Below are positions 2,515-38,752 of a stretch of DNA of 64,000 nucleotides, piece after piece (position 1 is the first letter of the stretch; every line of letters starts with the position of its first letter). The notes below the pieces were generated by a model that saw nothing but the letters and a program-made list of their open reading frames with translations, had not been told where the DNA came from and ran no database searches. Made by a program: the position numbers and the translations under genes. Origin of the DNA: a virus; the IMG/VR virus record IMGVR_UViG_3300010401_000004, positions 6,831 through 70,830 of that record. The stretch is one strand, 5' to 3'.

Positions 2515-4476
2515 TCAATATGAATCTTCCTGCACCAAATTGCCTGAGTCGTCGAAAATCTGCCACGCCGCGTTTTGTTGTACCTTCTTTTTAGCTTGGG
2601 CCAACTGAAAACTTATCGACATTTCACGCTCAGGGCTGTAGTCGTCCTTCAATGTTTCAGGTCTGTACTTCTCTGGCGTCACTGCTCGGATTTCTTCTTG
2701 CTCCGTCAACGCATCAGCATCCACGCCGAAGGTGGACATCAAGCCTCTCAGGCCATCGACAAAATCATCGTCGATCTTCTTCTGTCCTGTATTTCGATGC
2801 GAGTACAGCGGCATTTCATAACGACACCGAGCTAGACCATCAGCATCTTTCGCGCCGGTAACTCGCAGCTTCCCGTTGCCGTCTAAATACAATTCCCCCT
2901 GGCCATCCGCCACCACAAAGTACATACGAGGCTTACCCATGATTGGCATCCCGGCGTGAGGATGGCCCTTTGGGTACTTTCTGAATGGATGGGGTTTTTT
3001 CTTATCCACTTCCAAGAGATTTTGTATCTGCGGTACACCTGAACCTCTTGCTGCTTTCCATTTCTTATAGAAGATTTGCAACTCTTCCGGTAAGTCAATC
3101 ATCAGCGTGTTTTGCACTGAGGACGCTTCGTGAGAGAGTTTTGACTGCTCTATCTGTCTTTCCTCAATCCTCATGTGTTGTTGAAATAACTTCGTTGCGG
3201 CCGCGACCCGTCCGGGACTCACTAACTCCGCTGGGATACTTGGGTCATAGGGAAATTTCGGTAGTACAACTTCCCCGATAACAAAGTGAGAATCATCGTG
3301 AGGGCAAGTCTTGTCAGGGCGGGTAACGAAGGCTACGGCGGAGGGATGGTCTCTGGTAGTTCCAGTATCGAAGCCTCGCCCTTTGTGCCATCTCGCCGGA
3401 ATAAAGAACCCGTTTTCATCCTGCATTTCAACATATGGAAAACCCCGCGCCATCTCAGATCGGGTAATGATATGATAAACCTCATCCCACTCTCGAAAGT
3501 CTTTATCTTCCCCAACCTTCGTAACGTCCTGCTGGGCTTCACGGTCAAATAAGTCTTTCCCAATCTGGTTTAGAACTGATTCGCAGTATTCCAACGGAAT
3601 AGCCGGATCGAACACTTCTCCTGCTGTAATTGTCCATCGTTTCCCACCGTCAGGAAGATCGACCTTCTCCGCGTCATACCATTTCATTAAAGGATACGGC
3701 CCTTTGAAGTCTCTATCTGAAAGCATGTCTGCCCGGTGATCCATTACCATTGCGCAAATCGAGTCTCTATGAATCAGGTTTTGTGCAAAAAGAATTGTGG
3801 TGTTCGCATATCCCGCAAAGATGATTTCAGATTTTAGTAGTTCCAGGTTCTTCGCAATCACGTCAGGGCTTTCACCGAGAGAGTCAATGTCATCCAGTAC
3901 GATGAGATCGAAGCGCGTATCATCCTCTGACTTAAATCCTCGATTAGAACCTTGTAAGGTGATCGGAATAATCGTCTGCCCGCCTTCGGTTAGGAGCCGA
4001 TCCTGTGACCACGAGTTGAAAGCGTTGCGATATTTCTGAACTCGTGGTTTTAAGTGCGGGTAGTCTTGAAGCAGTTGGGAGTTCTCAAGTTTGCGGCGAA
4101 TGGAATTAAAGTGTTTAGTAGCTTTGTCGTCCGTACCAGAGACATACCCAATAGACATCTTCCGCTTGCGAGCGAGTAACATAACAACCAGCGTCTCTGC
4201 GGACGTACTCTTACCCACTCCGCGCGGTTCGCACTCAACCCGCGCACGGTAGTAGGTTTCCGGCTGAATGGCCCAGCCCCAATCCCAATAGTCTTTTTGA
4301 TAACTGGTAAATGGACGTGAGAAGGGTTTCGGAAAGTATCGTTTAATCCACCCGTCCCATCCGAGAGATTCCAGCCACTTAGCTTTCATCTCTGGCGGCA
4401 TAGAGGGCCACAACTCAGCCCACACCTGCTCATGTATCACCTCCGCAAGGATAGGATCATCAAGGATGGAGGGCAT
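2515..4476 (-). CDS. terL: Terminase large subunit
   Basis: Walker A EPRGVGKST, Walker B LIVLDDID, nuclease motifs GFDTG and DDFVDGLR; 653 aa. Confidence 0.92.
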   Translation of the reverse strand: MPSILDDPILAEVIHEQVWAELWPSMPPEMKAKWLESLGWDGWIKRYFPKPFSRPFTSYQKDYWDWGWAIQPETYYRARVECEPRGVGKSTSAETLVVMLLARKRKMSIGYVSGTDDKATKHFNSIRRKLENSQLLQDYPHLKPRVQKYRNAFNSWSQDRLLTEGGQTIIPITLQGSNRGFKSEDDTRFDLIVLDDIDSLGESPDVIAKNLELLKSEIIFAGYANTTILFAQNLIHRDSICAMVMDHRADMLSDRDFKGPYPLMKWYDAEKVDLPDGGKRWTITAGEVFDPAIPLEYCESVLNQIGKDLFDREAQQDVTKVGEDKDFREWDEVYHIITRSEMARGFPYVEMQDENGFFIPARWHKGRGFDTGTTRDHPSAVAFVTRPDKTCPHDDSHFVIGEVVLPKFPYDPSIPAELVSPGRVAAATKLFQQHMRIEERQIEQSKLSHEASSVQNTLMIDLPEELQIFYKKWKAARGSGVPQIQNLLEVDKKKPHPFRKYPKGHPHAGMPIMGKPRMYFVVADGQGELYLDGNGKLRVTGAKDADGLARCRYEMPLYSHRNTGQKKIDDDFVDGLRGLMSTFGVDADALTEQEEIRAVTPEKYRPETLKDDYSPEREMSISFQLAQAKKKVQQNAAWQIFDDSGNLVQEDSY

Positions 4477-30969: not shown

Positions 30970-31389
30970 ATGGTGGGGTCAAATTCCGTTTCCTTTACCC
31001 TGCCATCGCTTCCCGGCTCTTTGAACGTACTCTATGAACTCAACCGGCCTGACAGTGGACTACCGCGCAAACGGCTCAAGGCTGAGTGGGCGCTGTGGAT
31101 TAGTAACATGATGCCCTATGTTCCAGCCTTTCGGGTTCAGGAGAATTCAATCTTGCGGATAGACCGCTGCTATTACTTGCCGTGGTTTTATCGTAATGGT
31201 CACTGGCGCAAAGTGGACGTGGTAAATATGGACGCCTTGTTGTTCAACTTAATCAGCCGCAAAATCGGGATAGACGATCTCTACGTGAAGCAGGGCTTTA
31301 TGGATTCCAGGGACTCTAATAAGAATAAGGTAATTGTAACCCTGACAGAGATCATGGAATCCGAGTGGCAGCTAGTCCATCAGGACTGA
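30970..31389 (+). CDS. RusA-like Holliday junction resolvase
   Basis: LPGSLN..RKVDVVN..IGIDD.YV; one catalytic Asp looks substituted. Confidence 0.65.
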   Translation: MVGSNSVSFTLPSLPGSLNVLYELNRPDSGLPRKRLKAEWALWISNMMPYVPAFRVQENSILRIDRCYYLPWFYRNGHWRKVDVVNMDALLFNLISRKIGIDDLYVKQGFMDSRDSNKNKVIVTLTEIMESEWQLVHQD

Positions 31390-31399
31390 GAGGGGTGGG

Positions 31400-31906
31400 G
31401 TGATGAGAATTGGATACTCAGAGGACGAGGACTATCCGGGCCAGTTTGAGCTTTGGCAGGCGAACTGTCGGCGCTCACTTCACGGGCGAGCGGGGCAAGA
31501 AGCATTGCGCCGACTAGAAGTAGCGTTATTGGCGCTACCTGAGAAGCGGCTAATTGCCGACGCTCTCCAGAACGCTGAAGGTGAGGTCTGCGCGTTGGGC
31601 GCAATGGCATTGCACGAGGGAGTGGCGATGCCACGGGACGAATTCGCCGATGGTGAAGTCTACGGGACTGAGGACATGGAAGAGTTTGGCGAGAACGAGT
31701 TGGGCATTCCGCGCTTGGTCGCATGGAAGATCGTCGAACTGAATGACGAGCAGTTGGGCGGCATGACTCTTATTACTAACGAAGGCCCATACCGTTGGCC
31801 GTCCGAGAAGCCGAAAGGCTGGATTCCCATCACGCCGGAAAGTCGATACGAACAGGTCTTAGCGTGGGTGCGCAGGCATCTTGACCAAAACAGGACAGTA
31901 ACTTAG
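31400..31906 (+). CDS. Hypothetical protein
   Basis: 168-aa ORF with RBS. Confidence 0.65.
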   Translation: MMRIGYSEDEDYPGQFELWQANCRRSLHGRAGQEALRRLEVALLALPEKRLIADALQNAEGEVCALGAMALHEGVAMPRDEFADGEVYGTEDMEEFGENELGIPRLVAWKIVELNDEQLGGMTLITNEGPYRWPSEKPKGWIPITPESRYEQVLAWVRRHLDQNRTVT

Positions 31907-31999
31907 TTTCACGACACTTACGGGGGCCAGTTGTCGTGGAAGATGGCGGGCGGATCGGATTACGGTTTCACCTCCCGTAGCAGGCTCGCTCGCCAGAGA
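31907..31999 (+). ncRNA. Two-hairpin kissing/pseudoknot RNA motif (copy 1)
   Basis: Stems 31907-16/31932-41 and 31944-52/31987-95; loop TACGGGGG (31919-26) complementary to CTCCCGTA (31972-79). Confidence 0.55.
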
Positions 32000-32020
32000 T
32001 TGGTTCTTTGAAGTTTAAGT

Positions 32021-32430
32021 TTCACCCTTCGGGGTGAATCAAGTGAGGATTTATCGGACGCGAATCTTCGGATTCAGTTCGCCTGTTTCGGGCGTCGGCT
32101 TGATCGGCGTATAGCCAGCAGGAACTATCCTCCGGTGTCGCAGACCTACGGGCAATATGCTGGCGCGAAAGCGTGACTGCGGGCCAACCGATTGAGGCGT
32201 AAGAGATCGGCGTTGCCGGAAATAACGTGACTCCGGTGCTAACGGTAGCGCGGCGTATTAGGGCAGTGACCTATCAACGGTTGCTGTGCGAAAGCGACAA
32301 GCGGGCTGTGCGAAAGCCCTGCATGTAGAAACCATGCGCGGGTGAGCGGTGAAACCCCGTCTCAGGAAACCGCGTCTCTGCTCTGCGAATAGGCTTGACT
32401 TTTTGGCCGTGGGAGAGAAACGGCCACTTT
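32021..32430 (+). ncRNA. Large (~400 nt) structured non-coding RNA, family unknown
   Basis: No plus-strand ORF in the track; two cUUCGg hairpins, three GCGAAAGC, many nested stems. Confidence 0.7.
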
Positions 32431-32447
32431 GAAGGGAGTGTCTAGAA

Positions 32448-32684
32448 ATGAGTTGCGGAACAAAACTTGACGGACGTTACGGCAGCTACGAGGAACGGGA
32501 AGAAATCGTGCGGACGCTTGAAAATGACGGCGAACATTATCTCGCAGACCACGTTCGGCGCGGTGATTGTCTTGGGGTAATGGATTTGCACCGAGCGGAA
32601 GATATTCTTGATCGTCACGGGAAGTCTCGATACTTCGATTATCAAGAAGAGCGGTGTCGATGCCCTGACGAGGATGACTATTAG
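32448..32684 (+). CDS. Hypothetical protein
   Basis: AAGGGAG RBS. Confidence 0.6.
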   Translation: MSCGTKLDGRYGSYEEREEIVRTLENDGEHYLADHVRRGDCLGVMDLHRAEDILDRHGKSRYFDYQEERCRCPDEDDY

Positions 32685-32738
32685 TTCTGGCCGATGAACG
32701 TCGTGAGGCGTGGAATTCAGTTTCAGGGGAGTAGTAGT

Positions 32739-32777
32739 GATGGCAAAGTGCCCCGTAGCAGGTTCGCTTGCCAGAGA
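32739..32777 (+). ncRNA. Partial copy 2 of the 31907 motif
   Basis: 24/26 identity between 31974-31999 and 32752-32777, with compensatory stem changes. Confidence 0.55.
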
Positions 32778-32791
32778 AATTTAGGTTGAAA

Positions 32792-33064
32792 ATGAAGCCA
32801 GACTTTTCCAAAGATGAGGCACTTGTGGCGAGCGCGATTTTAGAGGCTCGGCATATTCAGGAATTTATCTGGAGCGATCAATCACTGTCCCGCAAGTCAT
32901 TTGACCCTGAGTCTTGGCGGATTGTATTTCAAAAACGGGTGGATGCCATCGCGGCAGTCAATCTCGCTTCGCCAAGCGCGAAGGTGGAGTTAAGGAAGCG
33001 GCTCTTACAGCAAGCCGCGCTTTCCATTAAAGCTCTGGTAGTGATTCTGAGGGAGGATATTTGA
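32792..33064 (+). CDS. Hypothetical protein
   Basis: ORF between the two 29-nt repeats. Confidence 0.6.
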   Translation: MKPDFSKDEALVASAILEARHIQEFIWSDQSLSRKSFDPESWRIVFQKRVDAIAAVNLASPSAKVELRKRLLQQAALSIKALVVILREDI

Positions 33065-33071
33065 AAGTTCT

Positions 33072-33151
33072 GGCCGATGAACGTCGTGAGGCGTTGTGGG
33101 GTGTAAGTCAAACAGCGTCCCGCTACTCGTTAAAGAGACATCGGCCTACCA
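33072..33151 (+). ncRNA. tRNA-like cloverleaf RNA ending in ACCA
   Basis: GGCCGATG/CATCGGCC closing stem, three arms, 3' TACCA; lacks canonical D and T consensus. Confidence 0.55.
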
Positions 33152-33168
33152 AGATATATGAAATTCAG

Positions 33169-33305
33169 AACGGAAGGCCGAGCATGAAAAAATGCCCTGC
33201 TCCGCTTCGGCGGCGAAAACTCGGGACGTGCTTAGCGGGCAACTGCGGCAGGCGGCAGATCTTCCGTTTAATTTTGCGGGACGGTCAGCATCCGTAAGGA
33301 CTGAC
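33169..33305 (+). ncRNA. Multibranch structured element plus pseudoknot/hairpin
   Basis: AACGGAAG/CTTCCGTT enclosing cUUCGg and GCAA hairpins; TTGCGGG/TCCGTAA with GTCAG/CTGAC. Confidence 0.5.
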
Positions 33306-33319
33306 AAGGCGAAACAAAA

Positions 33320-34572
33320 ATGACGGCACTTGTCGTAACTCTTCAGCTAATCAATTCGGGCAGCGGTGAGAACCCTCGCGCCACGATCTCAGTTGAGTAC
33401 GGAACTTTTGATCTCGAATCGGATCGCGGCTGGATCGAGAGGACGCTAAAGTGCTGGGCCGATCAGCTTGCGGTCGATCTCAACATGCGAAACCGCGCAC
33501 GGTTGCCAGTTCAGTTTGAAGAAAAGGAACTCTAAAGGAAAGCGGCATGGCAATAGCAATCTTAAAAGATCAACGCGAGCGCGCAAAGGCTGAGGGTAAG
33601 TTTCTGTTTCAGGTGTCTCTTGATGCTCGTTACGTCCCTCAAGAATTGAAAGAGAAATTCAAGGGCAAGGTTTTTATGGGTAAATGGGAAATGACTGGCC
33701 CAATGTCCGCAGAGGACGCGGTGAAGGTGTGGCGATTGTTTCAGAAGTTAACTGCACACAAGAAGATTTAGCGCCACGCGGGTCGCGCATTCAATACTCA
33801 AGGGAGAGCGATGGCAAGTCTTTTTGAAGAGTGGAAATCGTATCGCCAGCGGGTTATTCCGCCGACCGCGCCAGATGTTCAGGTTGTAGAAAGCAAGCGA
33901 GCGTTCTACGGCGGCGCATTCTGCTTGTTCAATTTAATGACGCGAACGGTATCAGTAGGCGATGAAGTAAGCGGCGCTGATATGGAATTCATGGAAAGCA
34001 TTGACCGCGAGTTCAAGGAGTTCTATCTGCGAATGGAGGAAGGCAAAGAATGAGCGACGTTAATTGTCAAGCAGTTGAAAGACCGTGGGGCCGGAAAGAG
34101 CGACTGGCGTTCTGGTTGTTTCCGAAAGATTACAAGGCATTGCCGCAAGCACCGTTCACACACAAGGACGTGCTTACCACTCGGATCATTTGCCACTTTG
34201 GAATTATCGACAGGCTGAGGATTCTAGTCTCAGGACGCACGTTTGTCGAGGCGCGAACGGTCTGTGAAAACGAAGTCGGAGATTGTAAGACGGCAAGCAC
34301 GGTATTCGTTCTCTCGCCGTGGGATAAGGACAGCTATCATGGCTGAATCAGACTTGGGCATGGTAATCGCATCGAACAATCTTGACGCCGATAGGCGGGT
34401 AGCGAGGCGGAACGAACGCATGGACGAAATTTGGGAACAGCACAATTCCAAAGTCAACACAATCATCGGCAAGTTAACGATGGCTCGCGGCATTCCTATC
34501 GTAAAAGAGGCGCACCAAGACTTGATTGATTTTGCGATTTGGTTTGACGAACAAATGGACGGAGCGGAATAG
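33320..34572 (+). CDS. Five small hypothetical genes (33320-33535, 33547-33771, 33811-34053, 34050-34346, 34339-34572)
   Basis: Co-oriented ORFs, mostly with RBS. Confidence 0.6.
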
Positions 34573-34601
34573 TTATCGAATCTAACCTCTCCCTTGAGCC
34601 A

Positions 34602-34612
34602 GTTCTTTAACA
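34602..34612 (+). promoter_or_regulatory. boxA antitermination element
   Basis: GTTCTTTAACA matches the GYTCTTTAANA consensus; immediately upstream of the RNA cluster. Confidence 0.6.
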
Positions 34613-34616
34613 AGTT

Positions 34617-34690
34617 TGCGCGGCAAGCGAACTCGCGGAACCTTAGCCGGGTTCTGAGTTGTCAACACCGTGGCTCGGGACTGCCGCGCA
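34617..34690 (+). ncRNA. Three-way junction RNA with kissing loops
   Basis: TGCGCGGCA/TGCCGCGCA stem; loops TAGCC and TGGCT are complementary. Confidence 0.55.
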
Positions 34691-34696
34691 TCTAAT

Positions 34697-34859
34697 CTCG
34701 TTCTGTTGGGGAGTGGCGGCGTGGACGGTGACACAGCCTAACTCCAAATCCTGTGAGGCTCTTGGGTAACAGGTAGGGCCAACTTAGAAGAAAAGAGCAC
34801 CCAATGAGAGTAACCCTGAGAGCGCGGTTCGATTCCGGCCCGCTTCCCGACAGAACGGG
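34697..34859 (+). ncRNA. Enlarged tRNA-like RNA
   Basis: 20-bp terminal helix, GG-containing D-like arm, CTCCAAA loop, ~60-nt extra arm, GGTTCGATTCC T arm; no encoded CCA. Confidence 0.6.
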
Positions 34860-34883
34860 GTGATATTTGAAAGGAGAATACCG

Positions 34884-35006
34884 ATGATTGAATACCATTG
34901 TGAAGATTGTGACTTTGAAACTGACGACGCGGCAGCGGCAGAGAGCCATACCCGCCTAACTGATCACTCAGTAGAAGATGTTGAGGTTCCCGAGCCTACA
35001 GATTGA
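34884..35006 (+). CDS. 40-aa C2H2-like zinc-finger protein (below ORF-track cutoff)
   Basis: AAGGAG RBS; MIEYHCEDCDFETDDAAAAESHTRLTDHSVEDVEVPEPTD. Confidence 0.65.
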   Translation: MIEYHCEDCDFETDDAAAAESHTRLTDHSVEDVEVPEPTD

Positions 35007-35019
35007 TATTTGAAAATAT

Positions 35020-35129
35020 GCCGCCAGTGGAGCAGATAGACATGCTGTTTGAAGTTTAACCTTCGAGCAGATAAGTTGGAACGCTCGTGAAATCCTGATC
35101 CCGCTGATTCAATTCAGCAAGCGGCTCCA
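35020..35129 (+). ncRNA. tRNA-Leu(UAA)-like non-canonical RNA with CCA end
   Basis: GCCGC/GCGGC-T-CCA; Leu-type GTGG..TAGACA D region; 8-10 bp anticodon stem with TTTAAC loop; T arm GCTGA-TTCAAT-TCAGC. Confidence 0.55.
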
Positions 35130-35131
35130 GT

Positions 35132-35329
35132 TTCAAGGGCTGGAAATCCTAAGGAAGGAAAATCGGAGGAGAAGTGAGAGAAGTAGACAATCTGGCCCTT
35201 GAATTCAAATCGACTGTTGCGGGTTACAAGTTTCCCGCAGCGCAAGGGAGCGGTTGCGAAGGCTTCGCCGCCGGTCGGGCCGTTCCCTTTTAACCCTGTC
35301 CGGGGTACTTACGTCTCTGAGGCGGCGGC
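35132..35329 (+). ncRNA. Structured elements: 13-bp stem with purine/GGA-rich loop, then two stems with possible pseudoknot
   Basis: Pairings 35132-44/35191-203, 35215-23/35234-42, 35244-55/35278-89, 35267-73/35323-29. Confidence 0.5.
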
Positions 35330-35349: not shown

Positions 35350-36033
35350 ATGAATACGCCAAACTTAGAGCAAGCGATCAAGGCGGGTGATAGGGTTCGG
35401 GTTGAGTTTTGGCCGATGAAAGATGATCTGCTTGGCACCGTCCTTTACATCCCGACTCAACCCGGCGATTCATGGATCGTCTGCACGGAAGATCGATTGT
35501 TTTACATACAACACTTTGCCGCGATTTCAAAACTGGTGAAAAGATTTCCTGAGACGTTGTAAGGACGGAGAGCAATGGAAAGACTAACAAGTGATGTAAG
35601 CCATGAGTGGCACGTTGCGATAAACAAATTCAGCACTGAAAAAGTTGATACTTCTGACTGGCCGCACTTCATGTATGAGGCAAAATCCGTTGCTGACGAG
35701 GTTCCGCGTATGGCCTCAATGTTCAAGCAGGAGCGTGAAGGCAGACTAAGACAGTCGCATCAACAGTGTTCGCATTCCGCGCCCGAACCCGTAGCCGACA
35801 ATCATCTTTCTTGTGCGCTTGGTAAGCGTTGCTCAGAATGTCCATACTTGATAGCGCTCGATAACGCCAAGCTGTCACCCGAACAAATTGACGCCGCGAA
35901 AGCGTGGACATGCGCAACGCACATTCTGATGAACGGCGGTGATGCGGCAATGGAAGGCTATTTACTAACCGAAGATGACAAGATGTTCTGGCAGAAAACT
36001 TATCAGGGAATGGCAATGTCGGATTCGGGCTAA
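35350..36033 (+). CDS. Two hypothetical genes (35350-35562, 35575-36033)
   Basis: ORFs with RBS. Confidence 0.6.
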
Positions 36034-38041: not shown

Positions 38042-38752
38042 ATGAAGCCGTATTATGAGGCTGAGGGAATGGTGATTTATCACGGGGATTGCCGCGAGAT
38101 TTTACCCGAACTGCCGAAGGTGGATTTAGTGCTGACCGATCCGCCTTATGGAATTTGTGTTGTGCAACGCACCTATCGCAACAAGAAAAGCAAGCCAGGG
38201 CGAGCGTTGGCCCACAAACGGTTCTATGATGAAAGCCATGAGTGGGACAACCAGCCGCCTGAAGAGGTTGTTATTAACGCAACGTGCAATGCTGCGGTAC
38301 GTGCAATAGTTTGGGGTGGAAATTATTTTAACTTACCTCCATCTAAATGTTGGCTTGTTTGGGACAAGATAAACGGTTCAAATGATTTTGCTGACTGTGA
38401 ATTAGCGTGGACTAATCTTGATAAGGCTGTGCGAAAGTTTGCTTATATGTGGAATGGAATGCTGCAAGGGAACATGAAAACCAAAGAGAGACGAACTCAC
38501 CCTACCCAAAAACCAGTACCGCTAATGATATGGTGCCTGACTCTCGTGCCAACCGCCCAAACCATCCTCGACCCCTTCATGGGCAGCGGCACAACCTTAA
38601 TCGCCGCCAAGCAACTCAACCGTAAAGCTATCGGTATTGAGATTGAAGAAAAGTATTGTGAGATCGCAGCGCGGCGATTAGACGATACGGCGGTATTGTT
38701 TCAACCTGCACCGCGAGCGTCGGAAGAGCCGATTGATTTATTCGCGTCATGA
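38042..38752 (+). CDS. DNA N6-adenine/N4-cytosine methyltransferase (beta class)
   Basis: TDPPY, HPTQKP, LDPFMGSGTT. Confidence 0.93.
   Translation: MKPYYEAEGMVIYHGDCREILPELPKVDLVLTDPPYGICVVQRTYRNKKSKPGRALAHKRFYDESHEWDNQPPEEVVINATCNAAVRAIVWGGNYFNLPPSKCWLVWDKINGSNDFADCELAWTNLDKAVRKFAYMWNGMLQGNMKTKERRTHPTQKPVPLMIWCLTLVPTAQTILDPFMGSGTTLIAAKQLNRKAIGIEIEEKYCEIAARRLDDTAVLFQPAPRASEEPIDLFAS

Follow-up and report, generated by a model that had tools for sequence, protein, structure and literature searches.

Short stem-loops that stabilize or process transcripts between genes are known from REP/BIME elements, the RNase III sites of T7 early RNA and boxB of the lambda nut site. A lambda nut site consists of boxA and boxB, where boxB has a GNRA-like pentaloop on a 5-bp stem, and lies near a gene for an arginine-rich N-like protein. 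UUCG loops are an RNA-stability motif, and from general knowledge of Rho and RNase E, a G-rich and C-poorer composition would protect a long untranslated stretch. The origin region of phage G4 spans 139 nt, E. coli primase prefers CTG, and ColE1 RNA II is a structured pre-primer RNA of ~550 nt.

PMC13037366 describes GCGAAAGC as an extraordinarily stable DNA mini-hairpin at the priming site of phage G4. The large RNA GOLLD has a profile in Rfam; many members exceed 800 nt, the 3′ region is conserved, and the genes often lie beside tRNA islands (PMC12286853). Here, a hairpin-rich, non-coding gap in the genome of a tailed phage is described and compared with these systems.

Genomic setting

The window, the whole stretch of DNA analysed, is 64,000 nt long and comprises bases 6831–70830 of a phage record that is complete at 70,830 bp and has direct terminal repeats (DTR). 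Among public runs, the stretch is carried by one soil-metagenome DNA run, possibly its source, whose contigs show no variants across it; no RNA run is among the runs listed with it. The genome is densely packed, and no other gap in it approaches that between genes gp168 and gp78 (Table 1) in length. Within the window this is the longest intergenic region; its 56.2% GC also exceeds that of every other one >100 nt (42–53.5%) and the window mean of 51.5%. Its + strand is G-rich and C-poorer (175 G, 129 C).

The gap lies within a recombination/replication module. A PD-(D/E)XK exonuclease and a Sak4-like annealing protein are encoded 5′ of gp168 on the + strand. Also on the + strand, gp78 is followed by a run of small genes and, beyond them, by genes for a beta-clamp-like protein and a DNA methyltransferase. 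Products encoded elsewhere in the genome include terminase subunits and an endolysin, besides many proteins without a known family. A simple consensus scan of + strand positions 31000–33500 detected neither a sigma-70-like promoter nor a canonical terminator; on that limited scan, the gap would be co-transcribed with its neighbours.

A 149-codon ORF with a TTG start (32362–32811, − strand) runs antisense to gp78 and extends into the gap; since gp78 itself starts with ATG behind a GGGAG Shine-Dalgarno sequence and has a metagenomic relative, the antisense ORF is probably spurious. Further non-coding stretches of ~250–310 nt occur at 34950–35198 and 34573–34884 in the same block of small early genes, which is thus packed less tightly than the rest of the genome. 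Two short strings, GATATTTGAAA (three copies, at 33056, 34861 and 35004) and CTTTGAAG (two copies, at 32006 and 32427), lie just before the ribosome-binding sites or start codons of small + strand genes and may be a shared translation-initiation or regulatory motif.

Table 1. Features of the gap and its surroundings, in window coordinates. Pair probabilities are from the partition function; "quoted" marks strings listed by the earlier note and confirmed here.
Feature	Position	Strand	Description
gp168	31400..31906	+	upstream gene; phrog_25637, function unknown
ORF-free gap	31907..32447	+	541 nt; no + strand ORF of at least 40 codons; stops in every frame
Hairpin right after gp168 stop	31907..31941	+	arms TTTCACGACA / TGTCGTGGAA, 90% complementary; no T-run; not called a terminator
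26-nt repeat CCCGTAGCAGGYTCGCTYGCCAGAGA, copy 1	31974..31999	+	part of a ~120-nt module duplicated before the next-but-one gene
H1	32021..32038	+	7-bp stem, C(UUCG)G loop; pair probability 0.89; quoted as TTCACCC-TTCG-GGGTGAA
Closing stem of the earlier note	32039 / 32393	+	TCAAGT / GCTTGA; quoted
Pseudoknot of the earlier note	32045 / 32127	+	GAGGAT / ATCCTC; quoted
H2	32062..32075	+	5-bp stem, C(UUCG)G loop; pair probability 0.24; quoted as GAATC-TTCG-GATTC
H3	32080..32094	+	CGCCUG-UUU-CGGGCG; pair probability 0.65; quoted as CGCCTG/CGGGCG
String pair	32100 / 32188	+	TTGATCGG / CCGATTGA; quoted
String pair	32114 / 32158	+	GCCAGCA / TGCTGGC; quoted
HPa	32156..32175	+	UAUGCU-GGCGCGAA-AGCGUG; contains GCGAAAGC
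GCGAAAGC, three copies	32165, 32288, 32310	+	quoted
String pair	32210 / 32243	+	GCGTTGCCG / CGGTAGCGC; quoted
HPb	32280..32298	+	GUUGCU-GUGCGAA-AGCGAC; contains GCGAAAGC
HPc	32303..32319	+	GGGCU-GUGCGAA-AGCCC; contains GCGAAAGC
H7	32320..32338	+	UGCAUG-UAGAAAC-CAUGCG; pair probability 0.53
String pair	32321 / 32333	+	GCATG / CATGC; quoted
H9	32404..32426	+	UGGCCGU-GGGAGAGAA-ACGGCCA; pair probability 0.95; quoted as a 3′ hairpin
gp78	32448..32684	+	downstream gene; no family; one 40%-identical metagenomic relative
26-nt repeat, copy 2	32752..32777	+	16 nt upstream of the ATG at 32794
HPd	38424..38440	+	same loop, in the DNA methyltransferase gene; AGGCU-GUGCGAA-AGUUU, 5-bp stem including two G-U pairs

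Coding potential and known RNA families

The gap is non-coding, as the earlier note had proposed for this stretch, and has the marks of neither a gene nor a pseudogene. Stops of mixed types occur 7–8 times in each + frame and 4–8 times in each − frame, and no single stop-codon reassignment opens any frame. Six-frame scans of the gap gave no PHROGs match at E<=1 and no credible Pfam match (one spurious 8-residue hit of 14 bits), and six-frame tblastn against 20 related loci gave nothing below E=0.048.

No Rfam family was matched when the covariance-model search suggested earlier was run: under cmscan, none of the 4227 families in Rfam 15 reached its gathering cut-off anywhere in the window. At E<=10, positions 31700–32700 gave only WT1-AS_5, a spurious lncRNA match (11 bits, E=9.6). 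Across the phage genome, neither ROOL (RF03087; gathering cut-off 99.1 bits) nor OLE (RF01071; 50 bits) matched at E<=10, and the control genomes also gave no match to either. Group-II-D1D4-1 (RF01998) was likewise absent at E<=10, and the Acido-Lenti-1 model had no match in the genome. ARAGORN detected no tRNA and no tmRNA. The Rfam cmscans held no match to group I or group II introns, RNase P or tmRNA, in agreement with the earlier failure to recognise RNase P, tmRNA or intron cores by eye. An intron interrupting gp168 was rejected, as gp168 homologues align over residues 1–161 without a second exon. CsrB-like sponging was also dropped, no enrichment of GGA being apparent by eye.

The gap resembles GOLLD and ROOL in being phage-borne, non-coding, several hundred nt long and of unknown function. 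It differs from them in having no covariance-model match, no sign of a stable global fold and no ARAGORN tRNA genes. It is at most 541 nt long, versus 574 model positions for ROOL and >800 nt for many GOLLD members (PMC12286853). GOLLD itself was rejected on the zero Rfam matches at gathering, the 541-nt length and the lack of an ARAGORN tRNA. GOLLD and ROOL are often near tRNA islands (PMC12286853), and a weak tRNA-like element lies 2.3 kb from the gap.

That element (34706–34852, + strand) falls in the non-coding gap 34573–34884. It has a 9-bp acceptor-like stem, GGGGAGUGG/CCGCUUCCC, closing ~140 nt, and a T-arm-like CGG-UUCGAUU-CCG. It matches Rfam tRNA-Sec weakly (16.3 bits, E=3.3), gives nothing by ARAGORN and folds at an MFE z of −0.73. 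The element may represent a tRNA that has decayed or carries an insert, or else a structure that only resembles a tRNA.

Search for homologues

A 'distant' blastn search of INPHARED found no match to the gap. Twenty phage loci reached through gp168 (30–79% identity, best segment) held no similar DNA by blastn or nhmmer. BLAST against the whole records of nine related phages, five found via gp168 (G001–G005) and four via the large terminase at 67–74% identity (G006–G009), gave only chance matches of 18–27 nt, one of which falls within a nuclease gene. The gp168 homologue of the closest relatives is followed by a different gene or by opposite-strand genes. Exact scans of IMG/VR gave one chance match to the H1 18-mer and none to a 20-mer of the 26-nt repeat; the tandem-hairpin pattern matched only an unrelated giant-virus tandem repeat. 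Relatives of gp78 were absent from viral contigs, and the one metagenome locus found was irrelevant. A search of bacterial genomes yielded only gp168 relatives of <=36% identity, in Burkholderiales, Rhodobacterales and Rhodanobacter contigs. The gap showed no paralogy with the rest of the window.

The feature, real and somewhat unusual, is thus far known from one genome, within the reach of searches that covered the large collections by exact word or protein anchor only and that may have lacked records very close to this one. Neither of the outcomes that the earlier note named as refuting it arose: there was no strong match to a known family, and no homologue turned up in which the pairings are lost. 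Apparent gaps at two of the related loci (L004 and L005) proved to be minus-strand genes, and the gaps of G001 that were read are unrelated to the gap studied here. One of these, a 519-nt AT-rich gap in this closest relative (G001:C1:25580-26098), carries reiterated GCGTAAGT and GCATACA together with terminator-like hairpins and has the look of a control region or an origin. Its sequence is unrelated to the gap studied here.

Global fold

The strings that the earlier note listed are all present, within 1 nt of the places given. From them it had drawn ribozyme- or scaffold-like complexity, and this part found no support. The MFE of 32010–32440 on the + strand is −159.1 kcal/mol versus −157.8 ± 6.5 in shuffles (z −0.19), and the minus strand gives z −0.46. 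In sliding windows of 100 and 200 nt the best z is −2.2, at 31900–31999 and 32025–32124, and windows in the central 32075–32275 fold worse than shuffles (z +0.3 to +1.2). Potential helices of at least 6 bp (G-U allowed) number 168 in the 410 nt, versus 178 ± 15 in 150 dinucleotide shuffles; for at least 8 bp the count is 26 versus 26.7. The enclosing helices, pseudoknot and closing stem proposed before exist as strings, but in the partition function these long-range pairings form at a mean probability of 0.02–0.14.

A new-family RNA of ~400 nt folded as a whole, similar to a ribozyme or scaffold and built of nested long-range helices plus a pseudoknot, is quite improbable in our view. Some general features would suit it. 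The gap is long and GC-rich, which is what GC-IGR pipelines select for (PMC6429828, PMC8632094, PMC8723152). UUCG and GNRA-type loops are present, and no known family explains the gap. Large ornate RNAs, GOLLD and ROOL among them, are indeed encoded by phages (PMC12286853). Beyond intergenic length, GC content and loop types, however, a globular ncRNA has no positive support. The whole region and its central windows fold no better than shuffles, long-range helices are at shuffle level with low pair probabilities for those named, and with no homologue found there are zero covarying long-range pairs.

The gap is also like the GC-IGR/DIMPL candidates in being the longest intergenic region and the GC-richest long one, the property by which those are selected (PMC6429828, PMC8723152). 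Those pipelines name motifs only after covariation among homologues; the gap, for which no homologue was found, would stand as an unclassified intergenic region.

Local hairpins

Three features exceed chance: two C(UUCG)G hairpins, an excess of short hairpins and a family of GCGAAAGC hairpins. The + strand of the 70.8-kb genome contains only two perfect hairpins with a stem of at least 5 bp and a UUCG or GNRA loop; both have UUCG loops and both lie in the gap, 41 nt apart (H1 and H2). The minus strand has three perfect tetraloop hairpins, which are scattered. H2 competes with alternative hairpins at 32033–55 and 32044–70. H9 lies 9 nt upstream of the GGGAG Shine-Dalgarno sequence of gp78.

Local hairpins were defined as stems of at least 6 bp, G-U allowed, with a loop of at most 9 nt. 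The hairpin richness noted earlier was confirmed by this measure: the 410-nt region holds 16, versus 7.0 ± 2.7 in dinucleotide shuffles, none of 150 reaching 16. In a genome scan, window 32021–32430 has 17 on the + strand (genome mean 5.5, sd 2.7), a number attained by 0.18% of genome windows, and 7 on the − strand. The genome-wide + strand peak is the gap itself, with 19 in the 410-nt window at 31921; the next independent peak has 16. When pairs were limited to a span of 30 nt, the MFE z was −2.15 on the + strand (2/200 shuffles as good) and −2.11 on the − strand. Since the two strands are equal by this measure, the hairpin excess consists partly of plain inverted repeats, equally usable by DNA.

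A ~100-nt tandem unit within the gap was considered and rejected (a 36-nt match at 69% identity, E=0.61, with no support from MAFFT).

The GCGAAAGC hairpin family

Three hairpins of the gap (HPa–HPc) and one in the DNA methyltransferase gene (HPd) form a family. GCGAAAGC itself occurs three times within 153 nt of the gap and six times genome-wide on both strands. The longer string CTG-N(1-2)-GCGAAAG occurs four times in the genome, all on the + strand and three of them in the gap, and not in the relatives. The 13-mer GCTGTGCGAAAGC is present twice in the gap, 22 nt apart. HPb competes with a 9-bp hairpin at 32263–87.

In an alignment of HPa–HPd (n=4), 22/24 cells pair and 3/6 pairs change on both sides. 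The inner three pairs are near-constant; the outer pairs vary yet still pair. In a post hoc test on these four hand-picked sequences, 13/500 shuffles reach the paired share and 12/500 the covariation score, and in slid registers only 33–50% of cells pair. The test is suggestive of a hairpin family with compensating outer stems.

Such hairpins could act in DNA. The single-stranded + strand would extrude GCGAAAGC-type mini-hairpins that mark a priming (ssi) site or part of the phage replication origin, on the model of hairpin I of the G4 complementary-strand origin; in a variant, the gap would yield a ColE1 RNA II-like primer transcript for an R-loop origin. We consider this quite improbable. 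By inspection only, the gap does show the sequence arrangement of a G4-type origin or ssi, namely a GCGNNAGC mini-hairpin within a hairpin and a primase trinucleotide just 3′. In G4, whose record annotates the primer at 3970–3997 and the origin at 3998, GCGAAAGC lies in an 8-bp hairpin, GGACGGCG-AAAGC-CGCCGTCC, followed by CTACTG. In the gap, each GCGAAAGC lies off-register in a 5–6-bp hairpin with CTG 0–8 nt after the stem. The gap is thus like the G4 origin and plasmid ssi sites in its off-register GCGAAAGC, its CTG just 3′ and its several hairpins per intergenic region. The clustering of three GCGAAAGC copies, the position in a recombination/replication module, with exonuclease and Sak4-like genes upstream of the gap and a beta-clamp-like gene downstream, and the span-limited z, equal on both strands, also fit. 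Mini-hairpin sequences are frequent in phage replication-initiation regions, according to PMC13037366.

The differences weigh against it. G4 is an ssDNA phage with an 8-bp stem, whereas this is a 70.8-kb dsDNA tailed phage with terminase genes, and its 5–6-bp stems include G-T pairs. No AT-rich unwinding stretch is present (GC 56%), nor are there iterons beyond the 13-mer pair, and the turning points of cumulative GC skew lie near 24 kb and 38–40 kb, not at the gap. The preference for CTG is that of E. coli primase and may not be that of the host of this phage. UUCG loops are a stability motif of RNA. Clusters of three degenerate GCGN(1-2)AGC motifs were found in 7/10 genome strands scanned (2, 2 and 4 in the others), so a conserved degenerate mini-hairpin cluster in relatives was rejected as being at chance level.

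The likeness to ColE1 RNA II is one of layout only: similar length, non-coding sequence, a G-rich sense strand, several 5′ stem-loops and a replication context. The gap differs in having no sequence or Rfam match to it and no antisense promoter in the scan.

Taken more broadly, the gap could be a new phage-specific nucleic-acid element. It would be either a ~430-nt orphan structured RNA made from the module ahead, or a G4-like origin or priming region of GCU-G(N)GCGAA-AGC hairpins that switch to GCGAAAGC mini-hairpins. This, too, is unlikely.

Duplicated flanks

The first 120 nt of the gap (31900–32020) are a diverged copy of the intergenic module at 32678–32795. The second module runs up to the next gene's ATG (TTGAAAATGAAG); at that place the first reads TTGAAGTTTAAG (TTT) and then runs into H1. 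The 26-nt repeat CCCGTAGCAGGYTCGCTYGCCAGAGA has only its two copies in the genome and is found in 0/4 relatives. A 42-nt gene-start fragment at 32670–32711 duplicates 33053–33094 at 86% identity. These duplicated flank fragments indicate that the neighbourhood has been rearranged.

The duplicated fragment is the start of the gene at 33061 (coding KVLADERREA), placed in the intergenic region after gp78. It appears partly again at 35405–35420, inside the gene at 35350. The 29-nt core of the duplication splits the metagenome assembly graph into unitigs of 70,353 nt and 412 nt.

The gap might accordingly be a non-functional patchwork: a scar of illegitimate or homologous recombination plus decayed sequence, in a block of small early genes prone to shuffling, with the hairpins and repeats as by-products of local duplication. 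We regard this as a serious but rather unlikely reading. It would account for the diverged module copy with its changed ATG place, for the 86% gene-start duplicate with its assembly-graph break, and for the 13-mer repeat 22 nt apart, which could be a slippage duplication. The element is missing from 9/9 related phage records and 20/20 related loci, and its global MFE is not better than that of shuffles. However, random-level stop density in six frames and the lack of a detectable protein family do not suit a recent pseudogene, the rest of the genome is tightly packed, and the GC content is above, not below, that of coding DNA. Nor would drift be expected to produce the local hairpin excess (0/150 shuffles) or the compensating outer stems of HPa–HPd.

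A proposed hairpin-bearing spacer or leader

Our preferred reading, held tentatively and at somewhat less than even confidence, places the gap in the early/replication transcript of the + strand as untranslated RNA with independent stem-loops: a spacer behind gp168, or else a long leader for gp78 and its small downstream neighbours. It fits the finding that structure is seen locally but not globally, and it fits the UUCG caps, the repeated hairpins and a composition rich in G and poorer in C. The stretch would act as a string of independent short stem-loops rather than one globular fold. Through its hairpins and base composition, this long stretch without translation may resist Rho loading and ribonucleases. 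Stability caps would be provided by the UUCG hairpins at the 5′ end, and a protein of the phage or its host would bind or process the RNA at the repeated GCU-G(N)GCGAA-AGC hairpins. We infer the transcription of the gap, its direction and every functional role given to it here. Several points count against a spacer or leader: no homologue was found, the minus strand reaches a like z when spans are limited, the hairpin-family test was post hoc on four picked sequences, and the duplicated flanks fit a functionless patchwork.

Like REP/BIME elements, T7 RNase III sites and boxB, the gap would place short independent stem-loops inside a polycistronic transcript. Unlike REP/BIME-type elements, its motif is not genome-wide, with four copies here and none in relatives. 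The repeated hairpins share with lambda boxB a U-A closing pair and a G...AA loop form; their loops are 7–8 nt, not 5. A lambda-type nut site was rejected on this loop length and on the lack of a recognisable N-like arginine-rich protein among the neighbours; no boxA was identified either. In layout, the gap is nearest to unclassified long GC-rich intergenic regions and intercistronic hairpin arrays and, more speculatively, to mini-hairpin priming signals.

As a worked example, the locus shows that a complex fold cannot be deduced from long-range pairings found by hand in ~400 nt of G-rich sequence. Should the GCGAAAGC hairpins work on single-stranded DNA, a priming signal of small ssDNA phages would extend to a 70-kb tailed phage. 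If the gap is functional, it would be an example of a densely packed phage keeping a long untranslated stretch inside an operon, and the molecule that binds its repeated hairpin motif could be looked for.
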